Shown: positions 4,538-45,273, counted from the stretch's first letter. The stretch is DNA of 55,260 nucleotides from Candidatus Bathyarchaeia archaeon (GCA_046760555.1 JBHIEI010000001.1:1-55260); one strand, 5' to 3'. The notes: generated from the letters alone by a model not told the origin. Translations and numbers: made by a program.

Positions 4538-5239
4538 TCATGAAGCCTCCTTGCCCCGTCCTCTCCTCCTCGCCATCTCCTCGGCTAGTTCACTCACCGA
4601 TTTGCCCTCTGTCTCTATCCCCAACCTCTTCGCGGCTTCCTTGATCGCTGCCTCGTATTCTTCCTCTGTTTTCCCTTCAATCCCAGTTACTTCCTTTTTG
4701 ATCGTGTATATCGCCTTCCCGATAGACCTAGCGATCTCCGGGATTCTAGAGGGCCTGGCGACCTCATGGGTTCTAGTGGGTCTAGCGATCTCCGGGATTC
4801 TGGTGTAAGCCAGGGAGCCTAGGAACGTCAACATCAAGCCGATGACTGTCATGATAAGAGGGTCGACCAACTCTACAAGGGTTGCTCTTCCCTGCATCAA
4901 ATGGGGAATGATCAGTACGGCCAATGACAGTATCACCATCACAGCTCCTGTGAGAGCGGCAGCGGGTGACGCCCATTTCCTACCTCTCCAACAGTGAGGA
5001 ATGAGGAAACCCCAGAGTGCGATGATGGACATGACTATGAGCGGAACCATGCTCACCTCCAGAACAGCCCTCGACTCTATCGAGAAGAGATAGATCATCC
5101 AGACTATCCCTATCAGTAGGGTGGTAGAGACCAGCTTACTCCAGATTCCAGAATTTTCGGGTGGTATACAAAAAATCGAAACGAGAGCTAAAATCTTTTG
5201 ACAGAATCTCCCATAGATCTGCGCTAATTCCCTTAGCAT
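4538..5239 (-). CDS. integral membrane protein with repeat linker and charged helical C-terminal domain
   Basis: 233 aa. About five hydrophobic helices, then RIPEIAR...RIPEIAR repeats, then the tail EEEYEAAIKEAAKRLGIETEGKSVSELAEEMARRRG. No family recognised. Confidence 0.5.
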   Translation of the reverse strand: MLRELAQIYGRFCQKILALVSIFCIPPENSGIWSKLVSTTLLIGIVWMIYLFSIESRAVLEVSMVPLIVMSIIALWGFLIPHCWRGRKWASPAAALTGAVMVILSLAVLIIPHLMQGRATLVELVDPLIMTVIGLMLTFLGSLAYTRIPEIARPTRTHEVARPSRIPEIARSIGKAIYTIKKEVTGIEGKTEEEYEAAIKEAAKRLGIETEGKSVSELAEEMARRRGRGKEAS

Positions 5240-7357: not shown

Positions 7358-7925
7358 CGTTTCGGTCGCACCCTATCCCTTCTCCCCTTCAGTCTGCTCA
7401 ATAACCATTATGCCACCGCGTAATCCCAACACGTAACATAAGGTGTGTGGATGAGTGACATGATCCAGCAAAGCATCTTCTGCTCTGAGATTTCACCGTT
7501 CATTATTTTTACTTCTGAGTCTCTTCATTTTGTCTTGGCTTCCTAAGCTCTATAAGGTGGAACCTCCAGCTGCCATATCAATTTGCACTATAAGAAAATT
7601 CATCGTGAAACATAGTAAAAAATCTAGTCCCTCCTAAACCCTCATACAGTAAGGGGCTGCGGAGGTAACCTCTCCTCATTCTACGCGGGCACTCCCGGAT
7701 AGCTCTATTCACCGAACAAAGCCTGAAGCTTCAAAGGACCTCTGTCCATTGGCATTTTGATGGCGGGCGGAGGCTCGATCGGATGGAAACCGGTCTGGAG
7801 CGCCGAACAAGACACTACAACGCTGAAATCACGTCAGGAATCGAAGCATTTGGAACGGAAAAGGATCGTGGCTAGGCTTTCGTCCAAATACTGAATAGCT
7901 ACCGCGTACGTTCTAGAATAAGTGG

Positions 7926-8429
7926 ATGCCCATGACAAAAGTTGGGATCATCGCGGATACCCATGACAACATCGTCGCCGCTGATAGCGCCATAGATCTC
8001 TTTAACTCCAGGGGCGTCGAACTCGTCATCCATGCTGGGGACTGGAATGCTCCGTTTACCCTAGCGAGGTTCGCGAAGTCAAAGACAAGGGTGATAGGGG
8101 TCTTTGGCAACATCGATGGTGATCGGGACGCGCTCCTCTCTAGGGCCGAAAGGATAGGGGTGCAGATCCTAGGGAACTTGGCAGAGGTCGAGGTCGGAGG
8201 AGTAAAGATCGCGGTTATCCATGGGAAGGACGAAAGGGTTGTGGAAGCCCTAGCCAAGAGCGGTACGTACGGCATCGTGATCCGAGGACACACCCATAGG
8301 CCCGATGTCAGATCAATGGGACCGACGCTGGTGATAAATCCTGGAGAGGCATGCGGTTACTTAACGGGTAAGAGAACGATCGCTGTGCTGGACACGGACA
8401 CACTCGGGACAGAGATCGTCGAGATATGA
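7926..8429 (+). CDS. MJ0936/YfcE-family metallophosphoesterase
   Basis: 167 aa with IIADTHDN, HAGDW, VFGNIDG, VIHG and RGHTH metal-ligand motifs. Confidence 0.8.
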   Translation: MPMTKVGIIADTHDNIVAADSAIDLFNSRGVELVIHAGDWNAPFTLARFAKSKTRVIGVFGNIDGDRDALLSRAERIGVQILGNLAEVEVGGVKIAVIHGKDERVVEALAKSGTYGIVIRGHTHRPDVRSMGPTLVINPGEACGYLTGKRTIAVLDTDTLGTEIVEI

Positions 8430-8437
8430 GTGACGAC

Positions 8438-9511
8438 TCAGGATACGATCTCCATCTTCTCCGGTATGTACTTGTCAACCACGTAGGTGAGCCCGTAGCG
8501 GGCGAACGCCTCTTGCTCCGCCTTCTTCTTTATCTTGAAGAACGTATCTATCTCTCGCTTCCATAGCTCGCCACCATATCGGGGATCCCTCCTTAACTCC
8601 TGGAGTCGCTTGATATCCAGGTTGGTCAGCGGGTCGGTCGGCAGGTCGTACTTGACTATATCGCTTGCCCAGACACCAGCCCATTTGGCCGAAGGAGTCG
8701 CGAGCTCCGGTATGTGTGCTGCTAACGCCGAACCCGATATGATGACCATCGCGATGTGAACCCCCCACGGATCGCTGTCGGTATAGATGTAGACGGGCAG
8801 CCCAAGCTCATCGTTAAGCCTATGAATCAGTGCTCTCGATGCCCTGGGAGCCTGTCCCGCTGTGTGAACCACGAGGGCGTTGAACCTCTCATGTGCCCTC
8901 TCCTCCACGAGGCGGGTAAACAGGGCGCCCTTCTCAACCACGATAACCTTGTCCGCGCTCGTCTCCACGAACTCAGAGGTCGACAGGGCGGGTCCGATCA
9001 TCACCCCGTCCGGGTGAATGGTGAGGTTTATCTGCTTCCCCTCGTACCCCTTCGTCGTGTACTCGATGGTCAAGTCTCCAAAGATGGCGCTCCTTTGCTC
9101 GGGGTAGACATTGAAGTCCTCCCTAGGGTGGGAGATAACGGTCTCGAGATCGGTGATAATGTTATTCGACTCGCTCTGGTCCTTGAACTTCATGCCGTAC
9201 GCCTGTGCGGAATAGAATACATCCCTAAGGGTACTGGTCTTCGATTTCTTCATGAGATCGTGGACGAAGTGGGCGGCCCACGCTAACTGGCTGAAGGGCC
9301 TCAGGTGGCGTAAGTTTCGGGTGCTCCTTCTGACCCGTCTGTCACCCAAGACGAAATGTTTCAGCTCACCGTCGTAGCGAATATTGTCGATGGACCTGCT
9401 AGGAAATGTTACCCATGGGAAGTTTCCGTTCGTCATGTCATCATACCAGGTCTCTCCGAGTCCCCTGAGTCTCCTAAGGGTATCCGTCCTTCTCAGCTCA
9501 GCCTTCTTCAT
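8438..9511 (-). CDS. top6A: DNA topoisomerase VI subunit A (Spo11 homologue)
   Basis: 357 aa. Has the 5Y-CAP region and Toprim motifs VIVVEKGALF and YIYTDSDPWG. Lies directly downstream of top6B. Confidence 0.92.
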   Translation of the reverse strand: MKKAELRRTDTLRRLRGLGETWYDDMTNGNFPWVTFPSRSIDNIRYDGELKHFVLGDRRVRRSTRNLRHLRPFSQLAWAAHFVHDLMKKSKTSTLRDVFYSAQAYGMKFKDQSESNNIITDLETVISHPREDFNVYPEQRSAIFGDLTIEYTTKGYEGKQINLTIHPDGVMIGPALSTSEFVETSADKVIVVEKGALFTRLVEERAHERFNALVVHTAGQAPRASRALIHRLNDELGLPVYIYTDSDPWGVHIAMVIISGSALAAHIPELATPSAKWAGVWASDIVKYDLPTDPLTNLDIKRLQELRRDPRYGGELWKREIDTFFKIKKKAEQEAFARYGLTYVVDKYIPEKMEIVS

Positions 9512-9512
9512 G

Positions 9513-11042
9513 TCAACCCTCCATTACCTTCCTTAGCAATGGGGAGATATCAGGTTCCTTCTCTCTCTCGGCGAGGTCCGTCGAGAACCTCGCTATCTTC
9601 TGGAGATACTTCATGAAGATCCCCATCCTCTCCCTCTCCCTCTTGATGCGTTCCTTCCTGTGAAGGTGCCTGCGCAAGCTTCGGGCAACCTCTCTAATCC
9701 CCTTCTCCACCTCCCTCATTATCTCAGGTCGATCGGCGATGAACTCCTTGCCCACTGTTTTGTAGGGGATCTTGGTCGAGCAGATGTGGGTGATCACGGC
9801 CAGCGGGGTGTCCTGCTTGACGCGATAGCTATTCCAGTTAATGACCTCGTTGACCACCTTCCACGTAGCATCACTGGCCTCATCGTAAACGAGGGGTATC
9901 TTATTCGCGTACCTATACAGGCTGATCCCGGGAGGGAGGCCTCCCCCATAGGCCAGTCCCCCCTCCGCGATGAATGGATGCCCTGAGTAGGTGGAGGGTC
10001 TCCTGCTGAACGTCCAGGTGGCTTCAGGGTGCAGCTCCTTACGGACGCCAAGGCTCAGCAATTGTTTTCCCAGGGAGGACAAGCAGTCAGCCTTTGGAGA
10101 CAGAAACCCATCGAAAGTGCTGAACCCATCAACCATCCTCGCGACATCCCTGGCCGAAAGCTTACTCGGGTCCAGATCAAGTGGGATGTCAACGGATTTT
10201 AAGAAACGTGTGGCCGTTTTCTTCCCGATCCTTTGGAAGTATCCGGTCATGAAGTTCACCATTGATTTGCACCCGTCCCTCACGGCAAGGTCGACCAATC
10301 TCTTCAACATCTCAACATCTACCCCTTTGGGATGCGGCTTAGTCGGAAAGGGAGGTTTTGGGACCCTTGTGGTAACCCTCCTAAACCTATACAGCCTCCC
10401 CTTGGGGTCAACAAGAGTTATGGTGGCATAGGGGTTCACCATGGCGGTTCTCTTAAGGTACTCTAAAATCTTCGACTCTGCTCGGTAGAAATCTCCAGAG
10501 AGGCGTATCTCGACGATCGTGCCGTGCCATCCAGATCTATTCCTGTGCCGCTTCGGGTATCCCTCCAGGACCATGGGCTCGTTCCTCTCGATATCGATGT
10601 AGAGCGCATACTCCGAGATCCAGGCTCCACCCACGCTCGATACGACGCGTGCCGGGGTGTTCGTGGTTATCTGAGCGTACAGGATCGCCATCGTCCCACC
10701 AAGTCCGAAGGTTCCCCTGGTTTGCTGGAGGAGGTATTTCGACCCGAAAAGCACTCGTCCGAAGCACCTTGGAACCTCTTCGTGTGGAACCCCAGATCCG
10801 TTGTCATACACGGATATGATGCACTTGGTGGGACCGGTGTCTGTCGCTGCCCCGTCCTCGAAAGTTACCCGGATATAGATCTCGGGTGTGGATCGGATAG
10901 CCTCGCAGGCATCCAGCGAATTCTCCACCAGCTCCCTGACCGATGCGTAAATTGCCCGGGTTGGATTGCTGAATCCCGCTATGTCGCGGTTTCTGTAGAA
11001 GAAATCCGCGGGGCTTATCTGCTTATATTCTACTTCGGTCAC
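9513..11042 (-). CDS. top6B: DNA topoisomerase VI subunit B (GHKL ATPase)
   Basis: 509 aa. Bergerat-fold motifs ELVENSLDA, DNGSGV and TRGTFGLGG. Confidence 0.92.
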   Translation of the reverse strand: MTEVEYKQISPADFFYRNRDIAGFSNPTRAIYASVRELVENSLDACEAIRSTPEIYIRVTFEDGAATDTGPTKCIISVYDNGSGVPHEEVPRCFGRVLFGSKYLLQQTRGTFGLGGTMAILYAQITTNTPARVVSSVGGAWISEYALYIDIERNEPMVLEGYPKRHRNRSGWHGTIVEIRLSGDFYRAESKILEYLKRTAMVNPYATITLVDPKGRLYRFRRVTTRVPKPPFPTKPHPKGVDVEMLKRLVDLAVRDGCKSMVNFMTGYFQRIGKKTATRFLKSVDIPLDLDPSKLSARDVARMVDGFSTFDGFLSPKADCLSSLGKQLLSLGVRKELHPEATWTFSRRPSTYSGHPFIAEGGLAYGGGLPPGISLYRYANKIPLVYDEASDATWKVVNEVINWNSYRVKQDTPLAVITHICSTKIPYKTVGKEFIADRPEIMREVEKGIREVARSLRRHLHRKERIKRERERMGIFMKYLQKIARFSTDLAEREKEPDISPLLRKVMEG

Positions 11043-22627: not shown

Positions 22628-24076
22628 CTATCTCCAATAAAATAGGTAGAAGTAGGCTAACAGAAAAGCCAAGACCAAGAGAAGTAACATCGAGAACGTT
22701 CGCCAGTGTTTGCTGCTCTCGATGGCCTTTAATGTCGATTGTGCCCTGAGCTGACCCAGGGTGTGCTCCAATTCCCCCTCACTCTCAACCCTCCTGACCC
22801 TGGTCTCCATGTCCTGCTTCCAAACCATCACGTTGTTTCTGGGCTCACTCGCATCCACGAAAACGGGAGAATGGGTGGTGAGTATTATCTGGGTAGCCCT
22901 GCTCTCCTCCCTTAGAAGCTCCAGCAAATTGCTGGATAGCTTGGGGAATAGGTGGATCTCGGGCTCCTCAATTCCGATCGCGACCTTTCCCTCCTCGGAG
23001 TAGAGATGCCAGACCAGACCGATCACCTCCTGTTCCCCGCCACTCATGCAAGCTACGGGAAGGCGCAAGCCGCCATCCCACACGCTGATCTCTGGGGTCA
23101 CGTCAACCCTTTTATTGATCAGCTTCTCGATGGCCCGCCTAATTTTGTCCCACTTCCTCTCATCCGGTACCTGAAAGCCAAGAGGCAGACTGGAGAGTGG
23201 CTCGAGGATGGTTGTTTTATCGAGTAGTGATTTCCGAACGGCGGGAGTTATCCTTACATCTCTCGCCGCCATCACCAACTTGAACTGTCCCTTAACCATA
23301 TCCACCATGCGTCTACACGCATCCCCCAGGACCCTGGGGACTATGAGACGTGGGGGGAGAAATTCTAGCAGCTCCTCATTTGTTGGAGGTCTTTCCATAA
23401 GTTCTATCCCCTTCTCTACAACCCAATCCCGATGATCCACGCCAGCTAGATTCTTAACCGGAATCTGCCTCTCTTGAACCAGACCATCGATGAACGGGTC
23501 TAGCTGGTAAGCCCTCCCCCCAAATACGATCAACCTATCAGAGACGAGCGTTGAGACCCCCTCCTTTCTCTCTCGATAGGGTAATGCCGCCCCAAATTGG
23601 TACACTGCTGGGGTCTTGTCAGTTTCGAGCTGAGCGAGCTCTTCAGGCGCCAGTGCTTGATCGTTTTTAACCACGGGAATGTCTCCCCACTTGATATAGC
23701 GTGTGCTCCATTTTTCACCAGGTTTAGAGATTCTTCGGCAGATGGTCAGCTCCCTATACCTTCGTCCGGTCTCCTTGGCAATCCTGAGAAGTCTCTTCCC
23801 AAACAACTCGCCACACTCCTCCTCCATCATTTCTAATGTCACGGTGATCTCTATGGGTATCTCGGTGTTCTTCTCGAACCAGCAGTATGCCTCGTTGAGA
23901 AATGGTGAAGGAGATCCATCCACGTACTCGAGATCCTTGAAGAACAGATACAGCGCCTCCAAGATGTTTGTTTTACCGACGCCGTTTTCTCCAACGAGGA
24001 TCGTGAAATCACTCAGTTCGAACTCCACATCCGACAAACTCTTATATCCCCTGATCCTCGCCTTATGGACCCTCAC
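22628..24076 (-). CDS. ABC/SMC-like (AAA_15/21, OLD-N-terminal-type) ATPase with C-terminal membrane anchor
   Basis: 482 aa. Walker A GENGVGKTN, signature MSGGEQE, Walker B IGIEEPEIHL, H-loop TTHSP. The final 25 aa, FSMLLLLVLAFLLAYFYLFYW, are hydrophobic. Confidence 0.7.
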   Translation of the reverse strand: MRVHKARIRGYKSLSDVEFELSDFTILVGENGVGKTNILEALYLFFKDLEYVDGSPSPFLNEAYCWFEKNTEIPIEITVTLEMMEEECGELFGKRLLRIAKETGRRYRELTICRRISKPGEKWSTRYIKWGDIPVVKNDQALAPEELAQLETDKTPAVYQFGAALPYRERKEGVSTLVSDRLIVFGGRAYQLDPFIDGLVQERQIPVKNLAGVDHRDWVVEKGIELMERPPTNEELLEFLPPRLIVPRVLGDACRRMVDMVKGQFKLVMAARDVRITPAVRKSLLDKTTILEPLSSLPLGFQVPDERKWDKIRRAIEKLINKRVDVTPEISVWDGGLRLPVACMSGGEQEVIGLVWHLYSEEGKVAIGIEEPEIHLFPKLSSNLLELLREESRATQIILTTHSPVFVDASEPRNNVMVWKQDMETRVRRVESEGELEHTLGQLRAQSTLKAIESSKHWRTFSMLLLLVLAFLLAYFYLFYWR

Positions 24077-37850: not shown

Positions 37851-38465
37851 ATGGGAGTAAGATACGTAGAGGTTAATGGAAGAGGAGTTGACCACACCCC
37901 TTATCTTCGAGCGATCACGCTATTGCTCTGCGATGCAGCCGAACGGGACGGAAAATCGACCATCTCCTTCGAGAGGTACGGCGATGCTCCTGACAGGGTG
38001 GGCATCCCCATGAAGTCCTTCGCCCTCGTAGGAGACACCTGGGAGGATCTGGAGGGCGACGCTTTGCTCTACGACCCGCCGTATGCGGACGCTGCGGTTC
38101 TCATAGATGCGACATCGATTAAGGGGAACGAGCCCTGGGGATTCGAGGGATTGGTCTTAGCCACCGATCCTCTGAAGGAAGGCTCCACCCTAATCGTAAA
38201 TTCCCCAGAGAATCCGGATTTCTTCCTTAGGTACCTACCTAAGGTGGACTTCAAATACAAAATCGCCACTATCGACGCATATGGGATCGATCCGCTCATC
38301 CCGGTCCCTCTAGCAGGTGCCGTTGGCAAGGTACTACCCGATCTCGTAACCTACCAGTCGCTGGAGGCGGCTGTCAGGGACCGATACAAGGTGGTCGCCG
38401 ATAGGGAGGCCGCGAACCTGAAGAAGGCAACTCAAAGCGTAAAGATATCGGAGGTGCTGCCATGA
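37851..38465 (+). CDS. 2-oxoacid:ferredoxin oxidoreductase gamma subunit-like (divergent)
   Basis: 204 aa. Its position and length fit PorG/VorG, but the canonical GRGGQG reads GRGVDH. Overlaps delta by 4 nt. Confidence 0.55.
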   Translation: MGVRYVEVNGRGVDHTPYLRAITLLLCDAAERDGKSTISFERYGDAPDRVGIPMKSFALVGDTWEDLEGDALLYDPPYADAAVLIDATSIKGNEPWGFEGLVLATDPLKEGSTLIVNSPENPDFFLRYLPKVDFKYKIATIDAYGIDPLIPVPLAGAVGKVLPDLVTYQSLEAAVRDRYKVVADREAANLKKATQSVKISEVLP

Positions 38466-38860
38466 GCAAGAAAGAATGGAAAGCTCCCTTGGAGAAGAAG
38501 AAACACGAGGTTCCATACAGAGTCGGTGCGTACGGACTTCCGGGATGGAAGAAAATGGGGCTAGGACCCGGAACAGGCATCGCAAACGTGATTCCGGCCG
38601 TGCCATTCGGCCAAGGGAATCCCTCCTTCAAGACGGGCAGCACACGAACGCAAAGACCGATCACCGACACCGAAAAGTGCAACCTGGACAAGCTCTGCTG
38701 GCTCTACTGCCCCGACGGGGCACGAAGTCCGGACCCCGACACTTACTTCGCGGTGGACCTGGACTACTGCAAGGGCTGCGGGGTCTGCGCCGCGGTTTGT
38801 CCCGAGAAGGCGATCACGATGCAGGATGAGTTGAAGTGGACGACGTGGGGTGAGAAATAA
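38462..38860 (+). CDS. porD: 2-oxoacid:ferredoxin oxidoreductase delta subunit (ferredoxin-like)
   Basis: 132 aa. One complete CKGCGVCAAVCP motif and one CNLDKLCWLYCP motif, where Asp sits at the second Cys position. Confidence 0.75.
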   Translation: MSKKEWKAPLEKKKHEVPYRVGAYGLPGWKKMGLGPGTGIANVIPAVPFGQGNPSFKTGSTRTQRPITDTEKCNLDKLCWLYCPDGARSPDPDTYFAVDLDYCKGCGVCAAVCPEKAITMQDELKWTTWGEK

Positions 38861-38861
38861 A

Positions 38862-40049
38862 ATGCCAAGAAGAGAAATCCTAACAGGTTCAGGGGCGGTC
38901 GCTTTCGCCGTTAAGATGGCCGATGTCGATGTGGTAGCGTCCTACCCGATCCGACCGTACACGGGGGTCATGAACTGGCTATCAAAGTTCATCGCTGATG
39001 GAGAGCTTGACGCTGAGATCATGTACGCCGACTCGGAGCATTCCCAGTTTGAGATTGTCAAGCACGCCTCAGCTGCAGGTGCACGAACCTTCGTCGGAAG
39101 CTCAGGGGTTGGGATCGAGTTCGCCATGGAGCCAATAGTCATCATCCCGAGCAACAGACTTCCTGTTGTGGCCATGATCGCGAACCGGATGCTCGACGAT
39201 CCCGGTTCCTTCGGTACGGAGCACAACGAGTCACTCGCCATCAGAGATCTTGGCTGGATGCTGCGCTGGCCCGAGAGCGCGCAAGAGGCACTTGACTTCA
39301 CACTTATCGCCTACAGGGTTTCCGAGGACCACAGGGTGCTTTTACCCTCGGGTCTATGCTGTGAGGGCAACTTCGTTACGCACCACCGTTTCAGTGTCGA
39401 GATACCTGATCAGGAACAGGTGGACGAGTTCCTCCCGCCGCTAGACCTGCCGCATGCACTGCACCCGGATCATCCATGGACGATCGCCCCTCAGGTCGAC
39501 GACCGATTCGGGTTTGAGATCAGGAGACAGCACACGGAGGGTATGAGGAATGCCAAAAAGGTCTATGCAGAAGCCCACAAGGACTTCGCCCGAATCTTCG
39601 GAAGAAACGAAGAGCCGTTCCTCGATGAATACATGACCGAAGACGCGGACCTCGCCTTCGTGTCTTGGGGTGGCACATGCACAGTGGCAAGGGCGGCCGT
39701 TCGTTCGTTGAGAAAGGAAGGTCTGAAGATTGGCTTGGTGAGGATGAAAGTCACCATCCCCTTCCCAGACGCCGAACTACAAAAGAGCCTCGCCCGGTTC
39801 AAGGCGGTAGCAACCCTAGACTGCAACTTCCCATCCGGTTCACCTCACGACGGAGGTGTGCTATTCAGGGAGGCCAGAGCGAGCATGTACGAGGTTCCCG
39901 AAAGACCTCACCTCATCGGTGCCCTAGTGGGCCTCGGTGGTCGGACGGTCTTCGTGGACGACCTAAAGGTGATCGGCAGAGAGCTAGCCAAGGTCGCGAA
40001 GGAGGATAAGGTGACGCGAGATACCATGTTCGTTGGAGTGAGGGAGTGA
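38862..40049 (+). CDS. porA: 2-oxoacid (pyruvate/ketoisovalerate):ferredoxin oxidoreductase alpha subunit
   Basis: Start taken at the ATG 1 nt after the delta stop. GSGAVAFAVKMADVDVVASYPIRPYT matches the POR alpha N-terminus. Confidence 0.85.
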   Translation: MPRREILTGSGAVAFAVKMADVDVVASYPIRPYTGVMNWLSKFIADGELDAEIMYADSEHSQFEIVKHASAAGARTFVGSSGVGIEFAMEPIVIIPSNRLPVVAMIANRMLDDPGSFGTEHNESLAIRDLGWMLRWPESAQEALDFTLIAYRVSEDHRVLLPSGLCCEGNFVTHHRFSVEIPDQEQVDEFLPPLDLPHALHPDHPWTIAPQVDDRFGFEIRRQHTEGMRNAKKVYAEAHKDFARIFGRNEEPFLDEYMTEDADLAFVSWGGTCTVARAAVRSLRKEGLKIGLVRMKVTIPFPDAELQKSLARFKAVATLDCNFPSGSPHDGGVLFREARASMYEVPERPHLIGALVGLGGRTVFVDDLKVIGRELAKVAKEDKVTRDTMFVGVRE

Positions 40050-40984
40050 AAATGTCGACGTTATGGCCTAAGGTTGAGATAAGGTACATAGGTGAGGTTC
40101 CAACTGACGAGTACTACGCGAAGGGTCACAGGACGTGCCGGGGCTGCGGTCCGGCGCTCTGTATGAGGTACATAGCTCTGGCGGCTGGTCCGAGGACGAT
40201 CCAGTTCAACGCCACGGGCTGCATGTACGTCGCCAACACGAGCTACTGGACCACACCGTGGGTGTATCCCTGGATGCACACGCAACTCGGAGCCTTCGGC
40301 TCCACCGGAACCGGAACGGCAGCAGCCCTCAAAGCACTGATGCGAAAGGGTAAGATCAAGAAGGAAGAGATCAACGTGGTCAGCTGCGCGGGCGATGGCG
40401 GAGGCGCGGACATCGGGTTCGGTCCGCTATCTGGCGCCTTTGACATGGGCTACGATGCGCTCTGGGTGATCTACGACAACGAGTCCTACGCGAACACGGG
40501 CATCCAGGCCTCGAGCCTAACGCCTTGGGGTGCATGGACCACGTTCACCCCACCGGGCAAGATGCTCAGGCTTGGGAACGTCAGGTACAAGAAGGACGTG
40601 GCCAGAATCGCAGCCGCGCATCAGATACCTTACGTGGCAACGGCCTGCCCCTCCTACCCATACGACTTCATGACGAAGATCCGGAAGGGGCTGGCGGCCA
40701 AGGGTCCAGGCTTCGTCCACATCCTCGCCCCCTGCCCCAAGGGCTGGCTGTTCCCAGCATCCCAGCTGATCGAGGTGGGGAAGAGGGCTGTGGAATCCGG
40801 CATCTGGGTCCTATACGAGGTCGAGGCAGGCAAGTTCAAGATAACCTACAAGCCCAAGAAGAAGATTCCGGTTAAGGACTACATACGGATGCAGGGACGC
40901 TTTAAGCACCTAAGGGACATGGACATTCGCTACATCCAAGAGAGGACCGACACAGCGGCCGAGGAAATAGGCCTCTGGAAATAG
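40046..40984 (+). CDS. porB: 2-oxoacid:ferredoxin oxidoreductase beta subunit (TPP-binding)
   Basis: 312 aa with CRGCGPAL and GDGGGADIG...NESYANTG TPP/Fe-S motifs. Overlaps alpha by 4 nt. Confidence 0.88.
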   Translation: MKMSTLWPKVEIRYIGEVPTDEYYAKGHRTCRGCGPALCMRYIALAAGPRTIQFNATGCMYVANTSYWTTPWVYPWMHTQLGAFGSTGTGTAAALKALMRKGKIKKEEINVVSCAGDGGGADIGFGPLSGAFDMGYDALWVIYDNESYANTGIQASSLTPWGAWTTFTPPGKMLRLGNVRYKKDVARIAAAHQIPYVATACPSYPYDFMTKIRKGLAAKGPGFVHILAPCPKGWLFPASQLIEVGKRAVESGIWVLYEVEAGKFKITYKPKKKIPVKDYIRMQGRFKHLRDMDIRYIQERTDTAAEEIGLWK

Positions 40985-41134: not shown

Positions 41135-41260
41135 TTACTCTCCAGAAGGGGCAACAACCTGTGTGTGCTCTTTCTTCACCTTCCTCTTCTTACCCTTTAT
41201 TACAGGCTTCTTAAAGATGGGAAAGCGAGGCTTGCTCTCTTTCTGCCCACGCCTGCTCAT
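41135..41260 (-). CDS. 41-aa basic low-complexity peptide ending Ser-Gly-Glu; candidate Pup-like modifier or substrate
   Basis: Not in the ORF track (under 60 aa). The ATG at 41260 is 1 nt after the upstream TAA (TAAgATG), with GGAGG 10 nt upstream. Translation is MSRRGQKESKPRFPIFKKPVIKGKKRKVKKEHTQVVAPSGE, with the stop at 41135-41137. Confidence 0.5.
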   Translation of the reverse strand: MSRRGQKESKPRFPIFKKPVIKGKKRKVKKEHTQVVAPSGE

Positions 41261-41261
41261 C

Positions 41262-42872
41262 TTACTTCTTCCTCCCCAATTCCGTCAATAGCTCACCCGC
41301 GGAACTCGCCTTCTCAACTAGTTCTCGGCTCTCTTGCTTATTTAGATCGAAGGGCTCTGGGAGTTCTATCACTTCCCCCTCGAAATACACCTTCCACCAG
41401 GATATCTTGCGTATATCGTTTGGAAATTTTTTCAATACGGAGCTTCTGAAGTATTCTCTTGTATCGCTTGGTCCTTCCGTCAGTCCAGTCTGGATTCTAT
41501 CTATAAGTCTGTCCCAGTCGGGGATTGGTGCAGCGTCTTTAGCGAAGGCTAGCGACTCTCTGGGATCAAATCTGGAATCGCACTCATCGAAATTTACGCC
41601 CTTTCCAACGTAGAATTCGACGCAATCGTCGACAAGGCTGAACTCGTTACACAAACCTATCGCCTCCATTGTTGTCGACGGTTCGTACTCGACCACTAAC
41701 AACTTCTTCGTTATCCAATCTATTCCATTGAACAGGTATTCCAGACTTCTCTCGCTCAGTTTCTGGACCGTGGCCTTCAGGATGTCAAGAGCCATCTTAT
41801 CTTGGGCACTGGCTTCTTCTTGGCTCACCATCTCCTCGATCTTCGCCAGATAGAAACCATCTAGGATCTCTGATACGCAGTCCACCCTTCTCCCATCCGC
41901 TAGTTCCACCCTCCAATTGTAATCCTCAGTGTCCAGGGAGACTTCCATAGCCGAGTTTAGGGGATCCCGTAGCCGTGGTGCATCGTCGAGTAATCCCCTC
42001 TCAAACGCACACATCACGAAAACCTGTAGCACATCCCTCACGAAGATGTGGAACTCGTTCCTCGCGGCCTCCCAATTTATGTCGTGGAGCCTCCAGTACT
42101 TCTCCGGATTGGCGTGAGGCTCATCTCTCAGGTTAAGAATCCCCCGCATGAGGCTCGTGTCAAGAGCGGAGATTCTTTTGAGGAAAGCCGATCTCGGCGA
42201 GATCGTAAATACCGCCGAATTCCCCGCGACTGTAGGCGCTCCCAGATGGGGGAAGACGAATTCCAGTTTTTTACCCTCCTTCGTGCATGTCACGTATTCC
42301 CCTCCACCGATCAGGGGTATGCGAGAGACCATGTACGGAACCAAGGCCCTTTCCACCTCATCCCACCTGTCGATGTTGCACACCCTTCTATCGAGACTTA
42401 TACAGCTGTGGGTGCCGTATGTTACGGATTCGAACCTACCGTCACTAACGGTGGTGGACACGTTGTTCTTGTAGGCGAAGACCCTGCGAAACTCCTTCTC
42501 GGTAGCCTTTGCTCCCCAGTAGGCGAATATTTCGCCAACCTTGTCGTAGACCACGGCGTCAAATGGGGTCCGATAGGCGGGAGTGGACACCTCAAAGTGT
42601 TCCGCATCGTTGTAGACCCTCGATCCGTTCAGAGCAGCCTCGAAGGGACCCACCGGTGCCATCCAGAGCGCCGGTAACCCCTGCTCGTACTCTAGGTTCC
42701 CAATTTCATCGTCGATGCTCCAATCGACCTCGCTGATGTATCCCTGTTCCTTCAGCCCCATTATGGCGGAGCTGATTACGCGGTTCCTCAGTATGCTACT
42801 CGTGAGGGAAGGGTGCGTGTCGATAGCGTACTCGTACTCTATGCCACGGATTCTGCCGTCGATGAATCCCAT
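41262..42872 (-). CDS. PafA/Dop-family (Pup ligase/deamidase fold) protein, larger divergent paralogue
   Basis: 536 aa. Family landmarks GIEYEYAI, LNGSRVYNDAEHFEVSTP, FAYKNN...TYGTHSCIS, NLRDEPHANPEKYWRLH, LRDPLNSAMEVS and IDWITKKLL are collinear with actinobacterial PafA/Dop. Confidence 0.8.
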   Translation of the reverse strand: MGFIDGRIRGIEYEYAIDTHPSLTSSILRNRVISSAIMGLKEQGYISEVDWSIDDEIGNLEYEQGLPALWMAPVGPFEAALNGSRVYNDAEHFEVSTPAYRTPFDAVVYDKVGEIFAYWGAKATEKEFRRVFAYKNNVSTTVSDGRFESVTYGTHSCISLDRRVCNIDRWDEVERALVPYMVSRIPLIGGGEYVTCTKEGKKLEFVFPHLGAPTVAGNSAVFTISPRSAFLKRISALDTSLMRGILNLRDEPHANPEKYWRLHDINWEAARNEFHIFVRDVLQVFVMCAFERGLLDDAPRLRDPLNSAMEVSLDTEDYNWRVELADGRRVDCVSEILDGFYLAKIEEMVSQEEASAQDKMALDILKATVQKLSERSLEYLFNGIDWITKKLLVVEYEPSTTMEAIGLCNEFSLVDDCVEFYVGKGVNFDECDSRFDPRESLAFAKDAAPIPDWDRLIDRIQTGLTEGPSDTREYFRSSVLKKFPNDIRKISWWKVYFEGEVIELPEPFDLNKQESRELVEKASSAGELLTELGRKK

Positions 42873-42881
42873 GCTAACGTA

Positions 42882-44294
42882 CTAGATCGAGTCCCTCACT
42901 ATTTTAACTTCCTTCTCTATCTTCTTCCAGTCCCACCCATCCAATACCGAGTAAAGAAATTGTTTTCCGGCAATGGTGACCCCCTCCCAGCTGATGTCGT
43001 CCAGTCTATCTCTGAACCGACTCGCAAGAGTGACCCTCAGCTCTGCCCTAGAACCCCTTGGGGGTTGAAAAACCGCCTCTGAGATAGATTCATCGCTTAC
43101 CACTCTCCTTATCCCAAGTTCTTCCTCCAGTTCGTCAAACAGGGACTCGGTCACGGCCATGTATTGGAAGTTCGCGGCCTCCCTCTTCTCTTCATCGCTT
43201 ATCCCACTCTCGAACTCAAAGAAATCGTCGACCCTCTCCTCTATCAGGCCGAGCTTAATAGCCCATTCGACTCTCTTGTCAAGTTCCTCGAAACGGCCTT
43301 CCTCAAGTTTTGTTGAGATGTCCTTGAGCTCATTGAAGGCGAGTCTATCGTGGTCCTTGGTCTCGCCCTCCTCGAGAAGAGCCTCGATCGGAGCGATGTA
43401 GTAAGACTCCAGGTACTCTATAGCATCCATGCGCTCCCCATTTTCCAAGGTGACCTTCCAGTCCCCTGCAACGTTTTTTGATATCCTCCTCGTCTCCGCA
43501 ACGGGATCCCTCAGCTTGGGTACATTCTGGATGAAACCCCTCTCTATACCGAGGATCACGTAGGAAGTAATGCTGTGCCTAAGAAACGTCGTTAACTGTG
43601 AGCGGGTACCCTCCCCGTTCACCACCTGACACCTGTAGTACTTCGTCCCCGCCAGGGGCTCGTCCCTTGTGGAGATCATCGGCCACACCTCAAAGATCTC
43701 CTTGGAGTAGAGGCCCCTTACGAACATCTGTCGGGGGGATAGAACAAACTGCCCCCTGTAATACCCGCCAGCGCCACAGAAGAGCTGACGACAGGTGAGG
43801 AATGGGATCAAGAGATCTGTTTTTTCGGCGAAGAGCGATCTCTCAGTCAGATAGTTCTCATGTGTCCCTCGCGTGGCATACTTTCTCGACTCCGGCTCGG
43901 CCATCGTAATGCTGGTCTTGTAGATGTGCACCCTCTTACCGATCTTCTCCTCCAACCGCCGAGAAGCGAGGTACGCGTATATCTCGGAAGCCTTGTCGTA
44001 GGCTACGAGTTCTAGGGCATTTCTGCATTCGGGAGTCGTGATCTCGAAGATGTCGTATATCCCTGGGCGGGTCCCTATGTCCCCATAGGCCCTTCCCCCG
44101 TTCCTCAGGAACTGGCAGGGGTTCCCCTTCCGGTTGAACAGAAAAGCCGGTCCAGAGAAATCGCCCGAAAATCGGTACTCGCCCAGGGCATCCAACAGGT
44201 CATTCACATAGGTCAAGCCAGGAGCTTTGAAGGGGACCCCGTATTCGATCTCTCCTCCTTGCCACATGTCCAACGTCGGCTTCATGGCAGGCAT
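42882..44294 (-). CDS. PafA/Dop-family protein, PafA-like paralogue
   Basis: 470 aa. GGEIEYGV, FLRNGGRAYGD, HIYKTS...RGTHENYL, LIPFLTCRQLFCGAG, ISTRDEPLAGTKYYRCQ, LRDPVAETRRIS, VEWAIKLGL and FQPPRGSRAELR match PafA (GIETEFG, FLRNGARLYLD, LFKNN..GCHENYL, LLPFLVTRQLICGAG, NTRDEPHADAEKYRRLH, IDWVIKRKL, QPPQTTRA). Confidence 0.85.
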   Translation of the reverse strand: MPAMKPTLDMWQGGEIEYGVPFKAPGLTYVNDLLDALGEYRFSGDFSGPAFLFNRKGNPCQFLRNGGRAYGDIGTRPGIYDIFEITTPECRNALELVAYDKASEIYAYLASRRLEEKIGKRVHIYKTSITMAEPESRKYATRGTHENYLTERSLFAEKTDLLIPFLTCRQLFCGAGGYYRGQFVLSPRQMFVRGLYSKEIFEVWPMISTRDEPLAGTKYYRCQVVNGEGTRSQLTTFLRHSITSYVILGIERGFIQNVPKLRDPVAETRRISKNVAGDWKVTLENGERMDAIEYLESYYIAPIEALLEEGETKDHDRLAFNELKDISTKLEEGRFEELDKRVEWAIKLGLIEERVDDFFEFESGISDEEKREAANFQYMAVTESLFDELEEELGIRRVVSDESISEAVFQPPRGSRAELRVTLASRFRDRLDDISWEGVTIAGKQFLYSVLDGWDWKKIEKEVKIVRDSI

Positions 44295-44337
44295 GGGGTC
44301 AAGAACCTTTTTAGCACCCTAGTATAAAGCTTACCAG

Positions 44338-45273
44338 ATGAAAGCCCTAGTCACCGGGGGAGCGGGATTCATTGGATACCCCGTGGTGAAATCGCTGCTC
44401 GAGAAGGGTTACGAAGTCAAGGTTCTGGATAAGGTTGCGGGCGATTTGGAGAAGGTAGAGGATCCCAGATTGAAGGTAATAATCGGAGGCCTCGAGGATA
44501 CCGATAGGGTTCAACAGGCGGTTAAGGGCGTGGACGTGGTGTATCACTCGGCTTGGGGCTTTGCCCCAAAGGCCAAGGAGGCGTTCAGGACCGATGTGGA
44601 GGGGTATATCAACGTGCTCGACGCCTGCGTGGAGAATGGTGTGAAGCACTTCCTCTTCTTCAGCAGTAGCGTGATCTATGGAGTACCCACATACACACCA
44701 ATAGACGAGGATCATCCCCTCCTTGTCGAAAAATCCAGAGCCCCTCTGCACGCGCTTACAAAGCTCGCTGCTGAGAATCTGTCACATCTCTACTACAAGG
44801 AGCACAACCTACCATTCACGATCTTCAGGTTTTGGTGGGCGTTCAGCGACGAACGAGTACCAGGTGGAACGCTGAGAGGGATCATCGATAGGATACTGAA
44901 AGGCGAGACGATCGAAGTCCCCAAGGGTAACGGGGGCAGCCTGGTGTATACGGGTGACGTGACCAACGCGACCCATCTGGCAACTCTAAACGAAAAGGCC
45001 TTTGGTCAGGTGTTCAACCTGGCGAGCTTCTTCATTACCTGGGAGGAGTTCATCGACCGCCTGATCACCCTGGCGGAGTCGGGATCAAAAATTAAGGTAG
45101 TTCCCCCCGAGAAATGGACCGGTCCCGGTCTGCTGGAGGGGGTCTGGGAGCACAGCATAGCAAAGGCTGAGCGCCTGCTGGGATACAAGCCGCCTGAGGA
45201 GGAGAGGAAAAAACTATTCGGAAGGGTACTGATCCGCAACATAGAGGCCAGAAGGAAGTTACAAGAGTCCTAG
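44338..45273 (+). CDS. NAD-dependent epimerase/dehydratase (extended SDR)
   Basis: 311 aa with VTGGAGFIG. The position expected for YxxxK reads HALTK. Confidence 0.8.
   Translation: MKALVTGGAGFIGYPVVKSLLEKGYEVKVLDKVAGDLEKVEDPRLKVIIGGLEDTDRVQQAVKGVDVVYHSAWGFAPKAKEAFRTDVEGYINVLDACVENGVKHFLFFSSSVIYGVPTYTPIDEDHPLLVEKSRAPLHALTKLAAENLSHLYYKEHNLPFTIFRFWWAFSDERVPGGTLRGIIDRILKGETIEVPKGNGGSLVYTGDVTNATHLATLNEKAFGQVFNLASFFITWEEFIDRLITLAESGSKIKVVPPEKWTGPGLLEGVWEHSIAKAERLLGYKPPEEERKKLFGRVLIRNIEARRKLQES

Follow-up and report, generated by a model that had tools for sequence, protein, structure and literature searches.

Protein tagging in Archaea is thought to rely on beta-grasp modifiers that are activated by E1 enzymes, and reviews and surveys treat pupylation as a system of Bacteria alone. 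Do some Archaea possess a tagging system of the Pup type? The question is raised by a locus in a stretch of 55,260 nucleotides (nt) from a Candidatus Bathyarchaeia archaeon (GCA_046760555.1, JBHIEI010000001.1:1-55260), which was analyzed as a whole and is referred to below as the window. A first-pass annotation had pointed to two same-strand open reading frames (ORFs) of 470 and 536 amino acids (aa), 9 nt apart, that carry motifs of PafA and Dop, the paralogous enzymes of the bacterial Pup-proteasome system. These two genes, here named A and B, are present as claimed, and they are followed at positions 41135-41260 by a third component, gene C, which had not been described. We consider it likely that this three-gene operon encodes a Pup-like, reversible protein-tagging system of Archaea that uses a new family of basic tags. 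The features of the locus are the following.

Gene A, 42882..44294, minus strand: Pup_ligase-family protein of 470 aa, putative tag ligase.
Gene B, 41262..42872, minus strand: Pup_ligase-family protein of 536 aa, Dop-like, putative tag deamidase and de-tagging hydrolase.
Gene C, 41135..41260, minus strand: basic putative tag of 41 aa, unannotated.
GGAGG, 41271..41275, minus strand: Shine-Dalgarno-like motif read from the sequence, 10 nt 5' of the C start codon and within the 3' end of B.
TTTATA, 44323..44328, minus strand: TATA-box-like motif, as judged from the nucleotides only, 28 nt 5' of the A ATG.

Both A and B belong to the Pup_ligase family. The Pfam model PF03136 (gathering score 25 bits) matches essentially the full length of each protein, with 225 bits for A (E 2.4e-66) and 178.8 bits for B (E 2.4e-52), which upholds the family membership that had been proposed from motifs. 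The PafA/Dop motifs quoted at that time are all present in the translations, except that GTHENYL, ascribed to the pair, occurs in A only, B having GTHSCIS instead. Among the sequences of the Protein Data Bank (PDB), Dop and PafA are the sole significant matches, with E values of 9e-32 (Dop) and 1e-25 (PafA) for A, and of 6e-31 and 5.5e-7, respectively, for B. AlphaFold2 models, built from alignments of 26-27 archaeal homologs, reached a predicted local distance difference test (pLDDT) score of 92.9 for A and 92.0 for B and a predicted template modelling (TM) score, pTM, of 0.93 for each, and they show a beta-sheet cradle like that of glutamine synthetase (GS) together with the family-specific C-terminal domain. 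In Foldseek comparisons, the A model matched Dop with TM-scores of 0.81-0.84 (4b0r, 0.81/0.84) and PafA with 0.74-0.79 (the PafA-Pup structure 4bjr, 0.79/0.76), and the B model matched Dop with 0.82-0.86 and PafA with 0.68-0.71, whereas the scores of both models were 0.4-0.58 against YbdK and gamma-glutamylcysteine ligase (gamma-GCS) and about 0.3 against GS. The Foldseek and hidden Markov model (HMM) scores thus rule out that A and B are generic GS or gamma-GCS enzymes, and the earlier preference for Dop/PafA over these families agrees with the best structural and sequence matches. Neither A nor B nor any of the tags had a PADLOC match, and a role in anti-phage defence was dropped as well; generic AAA models alone were matched by the AAA+ protein that some archaea encode next to A, described below.

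The gene pair is not restricted to the window. One genome per species (GTDB r232) was scanned, which yielded 116 relatives, and the best 80 loci, designated by L numbers, were examined; essentially all of these 80 are in archaeal metagenome-assembled genomes (MAGs), on contigs of up to 1.19 Mb. In every locus that reaches far enough, A is followed by B in same-strand tandem, and the presence of the same pair in related archaeal genomes, which the first-pass annotation had left as a matter to be surveyed, is therefore established. The A clade covers Methanomethylicota, Bathyarchaeia, Methanophagales (ANME-1, a group of anaerobic methanotrophic archaea), Methanospirareceae, Alkanophaga and Syntrophoarchaeum. 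The scores of the homologs fall sharply outside this clade: from 262 to 138 bits for A, where the first bacterial PafA appears with an identity of about 31%, and from 202 to 115 bits for B at the first bacterial proteins. The homologs carry automatic labels only, namely 'proteasome accessory factor PafA2 family protein' or 'proteasome accessory factor A'. Two typical ANME-1-type loci, with the gene order AAA-A-B-tag, occur in MAGs labelled as a thaumarchaeon (L044, DYFG01000031.1, 'Nitrosotalea sp.') and as a bacterium (L059, DATKXZ010000079.1, 'Desulfobacteria bacterium'); these contigs are probably mis-binned. In Methanophagales AOM70-1 (L043:7832-9774), B is split into 7832-9142 and 9139-9774, by either a frameshift or an assembly error, and the tag gene is kept at 9767-10111.

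Enzyme B is Dop-like in its residues, HMM scores, structure and profile comparison. The Dop of Acidothermus (AcelDop) binds Mg through E8, E10, Y92, E99, H155 and H241, and has D94 as its catalytic residue (Cui et al. 2021, PMC8599861). The equivalents of all of these are present in B (E12, E14, Y87, D89, E94, H155 and H263), and they are kept in 68 of 68 B sequences. The positions that discriminate Dop from PafA have been tabulated by Hecht et al. 2020 (Table 1, PMC7947786). After the catalytic Asp, Dop has the motif Y-V-D-H-A-H-P-E-Y-S-T-P and PafA Y-L-D-V-G-S-H-P-E-Y-A-T-A, with a one-residue insertion (D-V-G-S-H-P-E); PafA also has an Asp before the C-terminal Trp; the alpha-loop is a loop in Dop (G-L-E-T-T-L-K-R) and a helix in PafA (HIWEGVSSATTRSR); and the Dop-loop, of about 40 aa between the GhExE motif and the catalytic Asp, is present in Dop and absent from PafA (PMC7947786). 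The window B reads Y-N-D-A-E-H-F-E-V-S-T-P, with the D-x4-E spacing and the S-T-P of Dop, and Y-[ND]-D-x2-H-x-E-x-S-T-P is invariant in the 68 B sequences. Its alpha-loop, ALDTSLMR, is akin to the GLETTLKR of Dop and is predicted to be a loop. The spacer between E14 and D89 has 75 residues and lies at the position of the Dop-loop, with low pLDDT at residues 51-80; it is a flexible, Dop-loop-like segment that is an analogue of the Dop-loop by position alone, as its sequence is not alignable to the Dop-loop consensus. Consistently, B scores higher with the Dop model TIGR03688 (148.5 bits) than with the PafA model TIGR03686 (94.5 bits), and hhalign gives 380 for B-Dop and 276 for B-PafA.

Enzyme A is a divergent paralog that lacks a Dop-loop and fits neither PafA nor Dop at the discriminating positions. 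Hence, the suggestion that the two protein sizes mirror those of PafA and Dop stands for B, which is Dop-like, and does not stand for A. In the window, the ATP/Mg-site residues of A are E15, E17, Y70, E84, H145 and Q223, and D72 occupies the position of the catalytic base; D72 is followed by a 7-residue insertion, and a Ser stands before the C-terminal Trp, where PafA has Asp. Among 27 archaeal homologs, no variation is seen at E15, E17, N65, G66, Y70, E84, H145, E146, R169, R221 and R231, and E15, E17, Y70, E84, H145 and E146 are kept in all A-type sequences examined. By elimination, and because the ATP/Mg site is intact, we assign A as the ligase, an assignment towards which we lean only slightly. 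A second, orphan A-like paralog with 34% identity is present on a separate contig of Methanophagales AOM70-1 (L083:5878-7383), with no adjacent B.

The product of C, MSRRGQKESKPRFPIFKKPVIKGKKRKVKKEHTQVVAPSGE, ends in APSGE, and its C-terminal Gly-Glu is the feature required of a Pup-type tag. The start codon of C lies 1 nt past the stop codon of B, and in several other loci the tag start codon overlaps the B stop. A small ORF ending in Gly-Glu or Gly-Gln was found directly 3' of B in 55 of the 63 testable loci, which come from Bathyarchaeia, Methanomethylicia and ANME-1, and a 56th, in L043, was recovered by HMM, this being the sole recovery when the loci without a tag were searched again with both tag HMMs and by eye. 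As background, a G[EQ] ending is found in 0.84% of 11,483 small ORFs from these loci, and such an ORF lies in 3.7% of windows of 710 nt. The tags are of two types. Those of the Thermoproteota type, to which the window tag belongs, have 27-41 aa, follow the pattern ...LPSFK(R/K)K...KKEHxEV(V/I)AP(P/S)G(E/Q), and are basic, with a pI of 9.2-11.2; the antepenultimate residue is Ser or Pro, unlike the Gly of Pup. Those of the ANME-1 type have 81-123 aa; their N-terminal half is acidic (mean net charge -14.5), whereas their C-terminal part is basic and nearly invariant, ...MERLKKREKKEKAADLVSKLKGKKKxNKKIMPYEIYATSGE. Homology between the two families was not demonstrable by HMM comparison (E of at least 0.17).

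Sequence divergence places the tag genes under purifying selection, in the manner of translated genes: the differences are mostly synonymous and in third positions. Among the Thermoproteota-type tags, the differences at codon positions 1, 2 and 3 number 381, 149 and 1059 (synonymous:nonsynonymous, 760:444), and among the ANME-1 tags 2180, 1769 and 10179 (9201:3168). GGAGG or GAGGTG precedes 16 of the 17 Thermoproteota-type tag ORFs by 6-10 nt; neither was found 5' of the annotated GTG start in L025. When an HMM was built from the 16 other tags, with C left out, C was the only significant match among 2,331 six-frame pieces (E 4e-6; the next, 1.5). The Gly-Gln ending occurs in five Bathyarchaeia loci (L018, L019, L020, L023 and L025) and in one ANME-1-type locus (L080). 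Bacterial Pup has the same Glu/Gln dimorphism, and its Gln form is deamidated by Dop before ligation (PMC8599861). The protein encoded by C is probably a small, disordered modifier. That the tag region could be a known RNA was dropped, as Rfam gave no match for it.

In at least 47 ANME-1-type loci, a gene for an AAA+ ATPase of 541-547 aa is located directly 5' of A on the same strand (e.g. L004:6356-7984 and L028:2797-4431). The statement that the locus lacks a proteasome or unfoldase gene is therefore true within the window and has to be amended for the ANME-1 operons, which carry a dedicated ATPase. This protein has a single AAA domain, closest to VAT/Cdc48 D2 (E 1.5e-74). Its N-terminal 190 residues match no Pfam domain; they begin with a heptad-like helix followed by the segment 'SRSPPLDCGFVVEK', whose alignment to archaeal PAN, at the coiled-coil/OB junction, is weak (E 0.09). 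The C-terminus is invariant and ends in ETGMH[F/Y]; a canonical HbYX tail was looked for and is absent, the tail being G-M-H-[FY]. Long tags with an acidic N-terminal extension are found only together with this ATPase, and the ATPase only together with them; in loci of the Thermoproteota type, the window among them, the tags are short and an ATPase is not linked. The co-occurrence of long tags and ATPase suggests that the ATPase reads the tag, and the two together point to unfolding or degradation directed by the tag.

By homology to PafA and Dop, the chemistry of the system can be proposed as follows. The A-B-C operon, probably with internal translational coupling, would yield a short basic tag and two enzymes, a ligase and a hydrolase of the Dop type. 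The tag's C-terminal Glu side chain would be phosphorylated from ATP in the beta-sheet cradle, giving a gamma-glutamyl phosphate, and the activated tag would then be transferred to a lysine epsilon-amino group on a target protein, with A as the probable ligase. B would strip the tag from its targets, and tags ending in Gln would first be deamidated by B to the ligation-competent Glu form. The division of the two paralogs into ligase and hydrolase, and the use of protein lysines as acceptors, are what we infer from this comparison. In the lineage of the window, a general unfoldase such as PAN or Cdc48 may read the tag, or the tag may act in a non-degradative manner.

How do A and B relate to the bacterial enzymes? 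Significant matches to the TIGRFAM models of PafA and Dop had been expected, and at equivalog level this expectation failed. A reaches 169.5 bits with TIGR03686 (PafA) and 167.5 bits with TIGR03688 (Dop), far under the respective cut-offs of 551.3 and 492.3 bits, whereas the controls reach 701.7 bits (a true PafA, P0057) and 529-537 bits (true Dop, P0183 and P0184). With scores of 95-170 bits in all, set against cut-offs of 551 and 492, orthology of A or B to PafA or Dop is ruled out. In a bootstrapped neighbour-joining (NJ) tree (423 columns, 200 replicates), A and B are each monophyletic, and the split (A+B | PafA+Dop) is found in all replicates, so that the phylogeny set the archaeal pair apart from the bacterial one. 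Comparison by hhalign gave 492 for A-B, 661 for PafA-Dop, 363 for A-PafA and 360 for A-Dop; in the tree as in the profile scores, the two archaeal enzymes group with each other, and so do the two bacterial ones. The archaeal-bacterial distances in the tree are about 1.9-2.0 and saturated, and because the archaeal branches are saturated this pattern could reflect either independent duplication or long-branch attraction. A Dop-like ancestor may have given rise to the ligase/hydrolase pair on two occasions, or the archaeal pair may be an offshoot of great age that evolves fast.

The window is an ordinary segment of archaeal chromosome. Pfam scans and precomputed annotation identify genes for the A and B subunits of Topo VI, an archaeal-type AdoMet synthetase (PF01941), AdoHcy hydrolase, RIO1 kinase with a KH protein, MetRS, a four-subunit POR, FtsZ, a Clp1-like kinase and an OB Ssb-like protein. 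A and B rank among the genes whose codon usage is nearest to the window average (distances 0.56 and 0.63; mean 0.84 ± 0.18), the tetranucleotide profile of 41135-44294 equals the median of equal-sized windows, and an identical locus was recovered in independent assemblies of two sequencing runs. The neighbourhood is thus archaeal and the composition typical of the contig, as the first-pass annotation had anticipated when it considered a bacterial island unlikely. A is separated by a 43-nt divergent intergenic stretch from a gene for an NAD-dependent epimerase/dehydratase (44338-45273, plus strand), and the TTTATA motif within this stretch is a candidate operon promoter, which would imply a leaderless or short-leader transcript. 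The epimerase gene is also located beside A in 9 Methanomethylicia loci (51-55% identity), and the four-subunit POR cluster (37851-40984, plus strand) adjoins the tag gene in the window and likewise in L003; these adjacencies may be simple synteny or a functional link. Elsewhere in the window, a gene on the minus strand (22628-24076), in a region of slightly lower G+C, encodes a 482-aa AAA_15/AAA_21 (ABC/OLD-like) ATPase that may be a defence or mobile-element gene, and an ORF of 233 aa (4538-5239, minus strand), without a Pfam match at E up to 1e-5, ranks second among the genes of the window in how far its codon usage deviates.

Several observations weigh against a Pup-like tagging system. 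No gene for a proteasome subunit, PAN, Cdc48 or an Mpa-like protein was found in the 55-kb window by Pfam, annotation or tblastn. The putative tag of the window is strongly basic, with a net charge of +11, versus the acidic Pup; the tags of the window, of L003 and of ANME-1 have no Pfam match at E up to 1, including the Pup family PF05639, and no tag annotation exists in the databases searched. A search of a collection of 5.8 billion proteins also returned no homologs of the tag, but since a match there depends on 5-residue words in common and gene callers seldom report short ORFs, this result is little informative. Seven loci (L026, L027 of Alkanophaga, L030, L031, L042, L051 and L062) contain A, B and, where the contig reaches, the AAA gene, with no recognisable tag within 1.2 kb downstream; their tag gene may lie at another site, or the tag may represent a third family that goes unrecognised. 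The remaining points concern the enzymes. The H-E-N of PafA and Dop is H-S-C in the window B and H-G-N in most B orthologs, with loss of the Glu. The alpha-loop of A, FVRGLYSKEIFEVW, is predicted as helix, strand and loop, with no helix of the PafA type. When the catalytic-Asp column (D72 in the window) was tallied in 81 A-type sequences, including those of L005-L084, Asp was found in only 13, comprising the window and the Methanomethylicia group, and in 11 of these 13 the equivalent of His241 is Gln, as in Q223 of the window. The position is occupied by Cys in 59 sequences (ANME-1), with an otherwise PafA-like spacing (I-C-T-G-G-H-L-E), by His in 8 (one Bathyarchaeia group), and is gapped in 1. 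Since Cys or His replaces the catalytic Asp in orthologs, the ligase mechanism of A cannot be identical to that of PafA.

These features of A can be read in other ways. B could be the only enzyme, ligating as well as hydrolysing or deamidating in the manner of a promiscuous ancestor, and A a non-catalytic, regulatory or adaptor paralog with a role such as substrate recruitment. B indeed keeps every catalytic residue, the catalytic Asp of A has been lost in 67 of 81 sequences and the equivalents of R210 and H223 are variable, and both A and B are modelled with an alpha-loop conformation of the Dop type; moreover, the ancestor of PafA and Dop has been argued to be promiscuous, and single-copy homologs exist in Planctomycetes (Hecht 2020, PMC7947786). 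Yet the nucleotide/Mg site of A (GhExE, Y, E, H-E) is invariant down to 35-40% identity, and since it is invariant over such deep divergence, A should have retained ATP chemistry. A and B also co-occur in essentially every locus, and the ANME-1 A has a PafA-like one-residue insertion and a Gly after the catalytic position. We therefore regard a one-enzyme system as unlikely. The unusual acceptor side of A, with its change of Asp to Cys or His and its variable insertion, could also belong to a pathway for a peptide or small molecule, in which the small ORF is a scaffold or a precursor resembling those of ribosomally synthesised and post-translationally modified peptides (RiPPs). A would then amidate its C-terminal Glu, using a small amine (an amino acid, a polyamine or a cofactor precursor), and B would process it, with no attachment to proteins. 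A short conserved peptide adjoining ATP-dependent carboxylate-amine ligases would fit such a pathway, as would the lack of a linked proteasome gene in the window, and the GS/gamma-GCS superfamily normally ligates small amines (PMC2588565). Nevertheless, no conserved protease, transporter or further tailoring enzyme lies beside the operon, whose neighbours vary by lineage; the ANME-1 version is tightly linked to an ATPase of the AAA+ unfoldase type and has longer tags; and the nearest solved relatives, including the extra C-terminal domain, are protein-tag enzymes and not small-molecule ligases. Biosynthesis is, in our judgment, quite unlikely.

An artefact, in which the locus stems from contaminating bacteria, from chimeric assembly or from a recent bacterial island and the small ORF is a chance reading frame, might come to mind because the family was previously known from bacteria only and two related loci are in MAGs labelled Desulfobacteria and Nitrosotalea. 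Against it stand the two independent assemblies, the archaeal housekeeping flanks and native composition, the occurrence of the locus in more than 80 archaeal species genomes of at least three lineages on contigs as long as 1.19 Mb, the identity of only about 30% to the nearest bacterial proteins, and a tag ORF that is conserved under purifying selection. Archaeal flanks, native composition and wide archaeal distribution together leave no sign of contamination or recent import, both of which were, as far as sequences can tell, ruled out on these grounds, and we hold an artefact to be scarcely credible.

Taking the Pup-like tagging system as the preferred reading, the results can be joined into a broader proposal, which is possible but as a whole rather doubtful. 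Archaea would own a Pup-type pathway, either anciently diverged or independently duplicated, with the smallest protein modifier yet proposed, a basic peptide of 27-41 aa attached via its C-terminal Glu. In most lineages the ligase would have exchanged its Asp for Cys or His, possibly with another way of activating the acceptor or with a thioester intermediate. In ANME-1, a PAN-like AAA+ protein would read a longer tag, and the split into ligase and hydrolase would have occurred twice, in parallel, from a Dop-like ancestor.

The closest known counterpart is the Pup-proteasome system of Actinobacteria and Nitrospirae (Pup, PafA, Dop, Mpa/ARC and PrcAB). The archaeal locus resembles it in having two paralogous Pup_ligase enzymes and a small tag gene, in the Gly-Glu or Gly-Gln end of the tag with its lineage-specific Glu/Gln dimorphism, in the Dop hallmarks of B, and in a fold with the family-specific C-terminal domain; the ATPase linked in ANME-1 is similar to Mpa in that it has a helical segment at the N-terminus, possibly an OB domain, and a C-terminal tail that is conserved. 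It differs in its archaeal host, in enzymes that are not orthologs of PafA and Dop, and in the absence of linked proteasome genes from the window. Whereas Pup has a pI of about 4 and ends in G-G-[QE], the archaeal tag of the window type is unrelated in sequence, basic, and ends in A-P-[SP]-G-E. The ligase-like paralog departs from PafA by the Cys or His found for the catalytic Asp in most lineages and, in the window, by the Gln found for a His metal ligand. Finally, the ANME-1 AAA protein, which is closest to VAT/Cdc48 D2, ends in G-M-H-[FY] and not in the HbYX-type G-Q-Y-L. A further tag family, UBact, is reportedly encoded beside PafA/Dop homologs in Gram-negative bacteria (Nitrospirae, Verrucomicrobia, Armatimonadetes and others); it is said to be unrelated in sequence to Pup and to end in Glu or Gln. 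UBact is also said to be bacterial and usually linked to homologs of Mpa and the proteasome, with enzymes close to canonical PafA and Dop. If these accounts of a second tag family are correct, the PafA/Dop enzyme family can work with divergent tags.

Within Archaea, the known modifiers SAMP1/2/3, Urm1-like proteins and the ubiquitin of Caldiarchaeum are joined by their C-terminal carboxylate to lysine, and at least some have a link to degradation by the proteasome (PMC2948915, PMC4569737). The system proposed here would share with the SAMP/Urm1 type small archaeal protein modifiers that are joined to lysines via a C-terminal carboxylate. The SAMP/Urm1 modifiers have a beta-grasp fold and a C-terminal Gly-Gly, and their alpha-carboxylate is adenylated by the E1 enzyme UbaA; in contrast, the archaeal Pup-like system would use a short, probably disordered peptide, enzymes with a GS-like fold, and a predicted linkage through the gamma-carboxylate of the C-terminal Glu. 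Among bacteria, Planctomycetes have deep-branching, single-copy homologs that are about 30% identical to PafA and Dop and partly align with the Dop-loop (Hecht et al. 2020, PMC7947786), some of them with membrane insertions (PMC2588565). They suggest a Dop-like ancestral state, which fits the Dop-like nature of the archaeal B, but they are single-copy and bacterial, whereas the archaeal system has two specialised paralogs and a tag.

The enzyme family and the presumed chemistry are already known. The host domain, the tag families, the altered active site of the ligase and the ATPase partner in ANME-1 are new. The RefSeq survey of Hecht 2020 covers bacterial phyla only and never mentions archaea (PMC7947786), the 2025 'Pupdates' review describes no archaeal system, and Iyer et al. 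2008 mention archaea for proteasomes and PAC2 only (PMC2588565). Our search of the openly accessible literature found no publication that joins pupylation and ANME; the top-ranked literature on Bathyarchaeia, Thermoproteota and Methanomethylicia does not mention pupylation, and a large comparative-genomics study of ANME mentions neither Pup nor PafA nor proteasomes.

If the Pup-like tagging system is real, archaeal proteostasis would have a second, mechanistically unrelated tagging route, and a new family of very short tags would have been missed by gene callers. It would also bear on the origin of the functional split between PafA and Dop, and the A sequences, with their Asp, Cys or His, would serve as a natural experiment on the ligase's catalytic base. 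Were the broader proposal also true, tagging by ligases of the GS fold would be a phenomenon of two domains of life and not a bacterial invention. Pupylation has been reconstituted in E. coli with PafA and PupE alone (cited in PMC7947786), and methanogens of the class Methanomethylicia are now in culture (PMC12244365); with this precedent and these cultures, the archaeal system is directly testable. Its hosts are globally important archaea of the methane and alkane cycles, in which regulated protein turnover would be of physiological interest.

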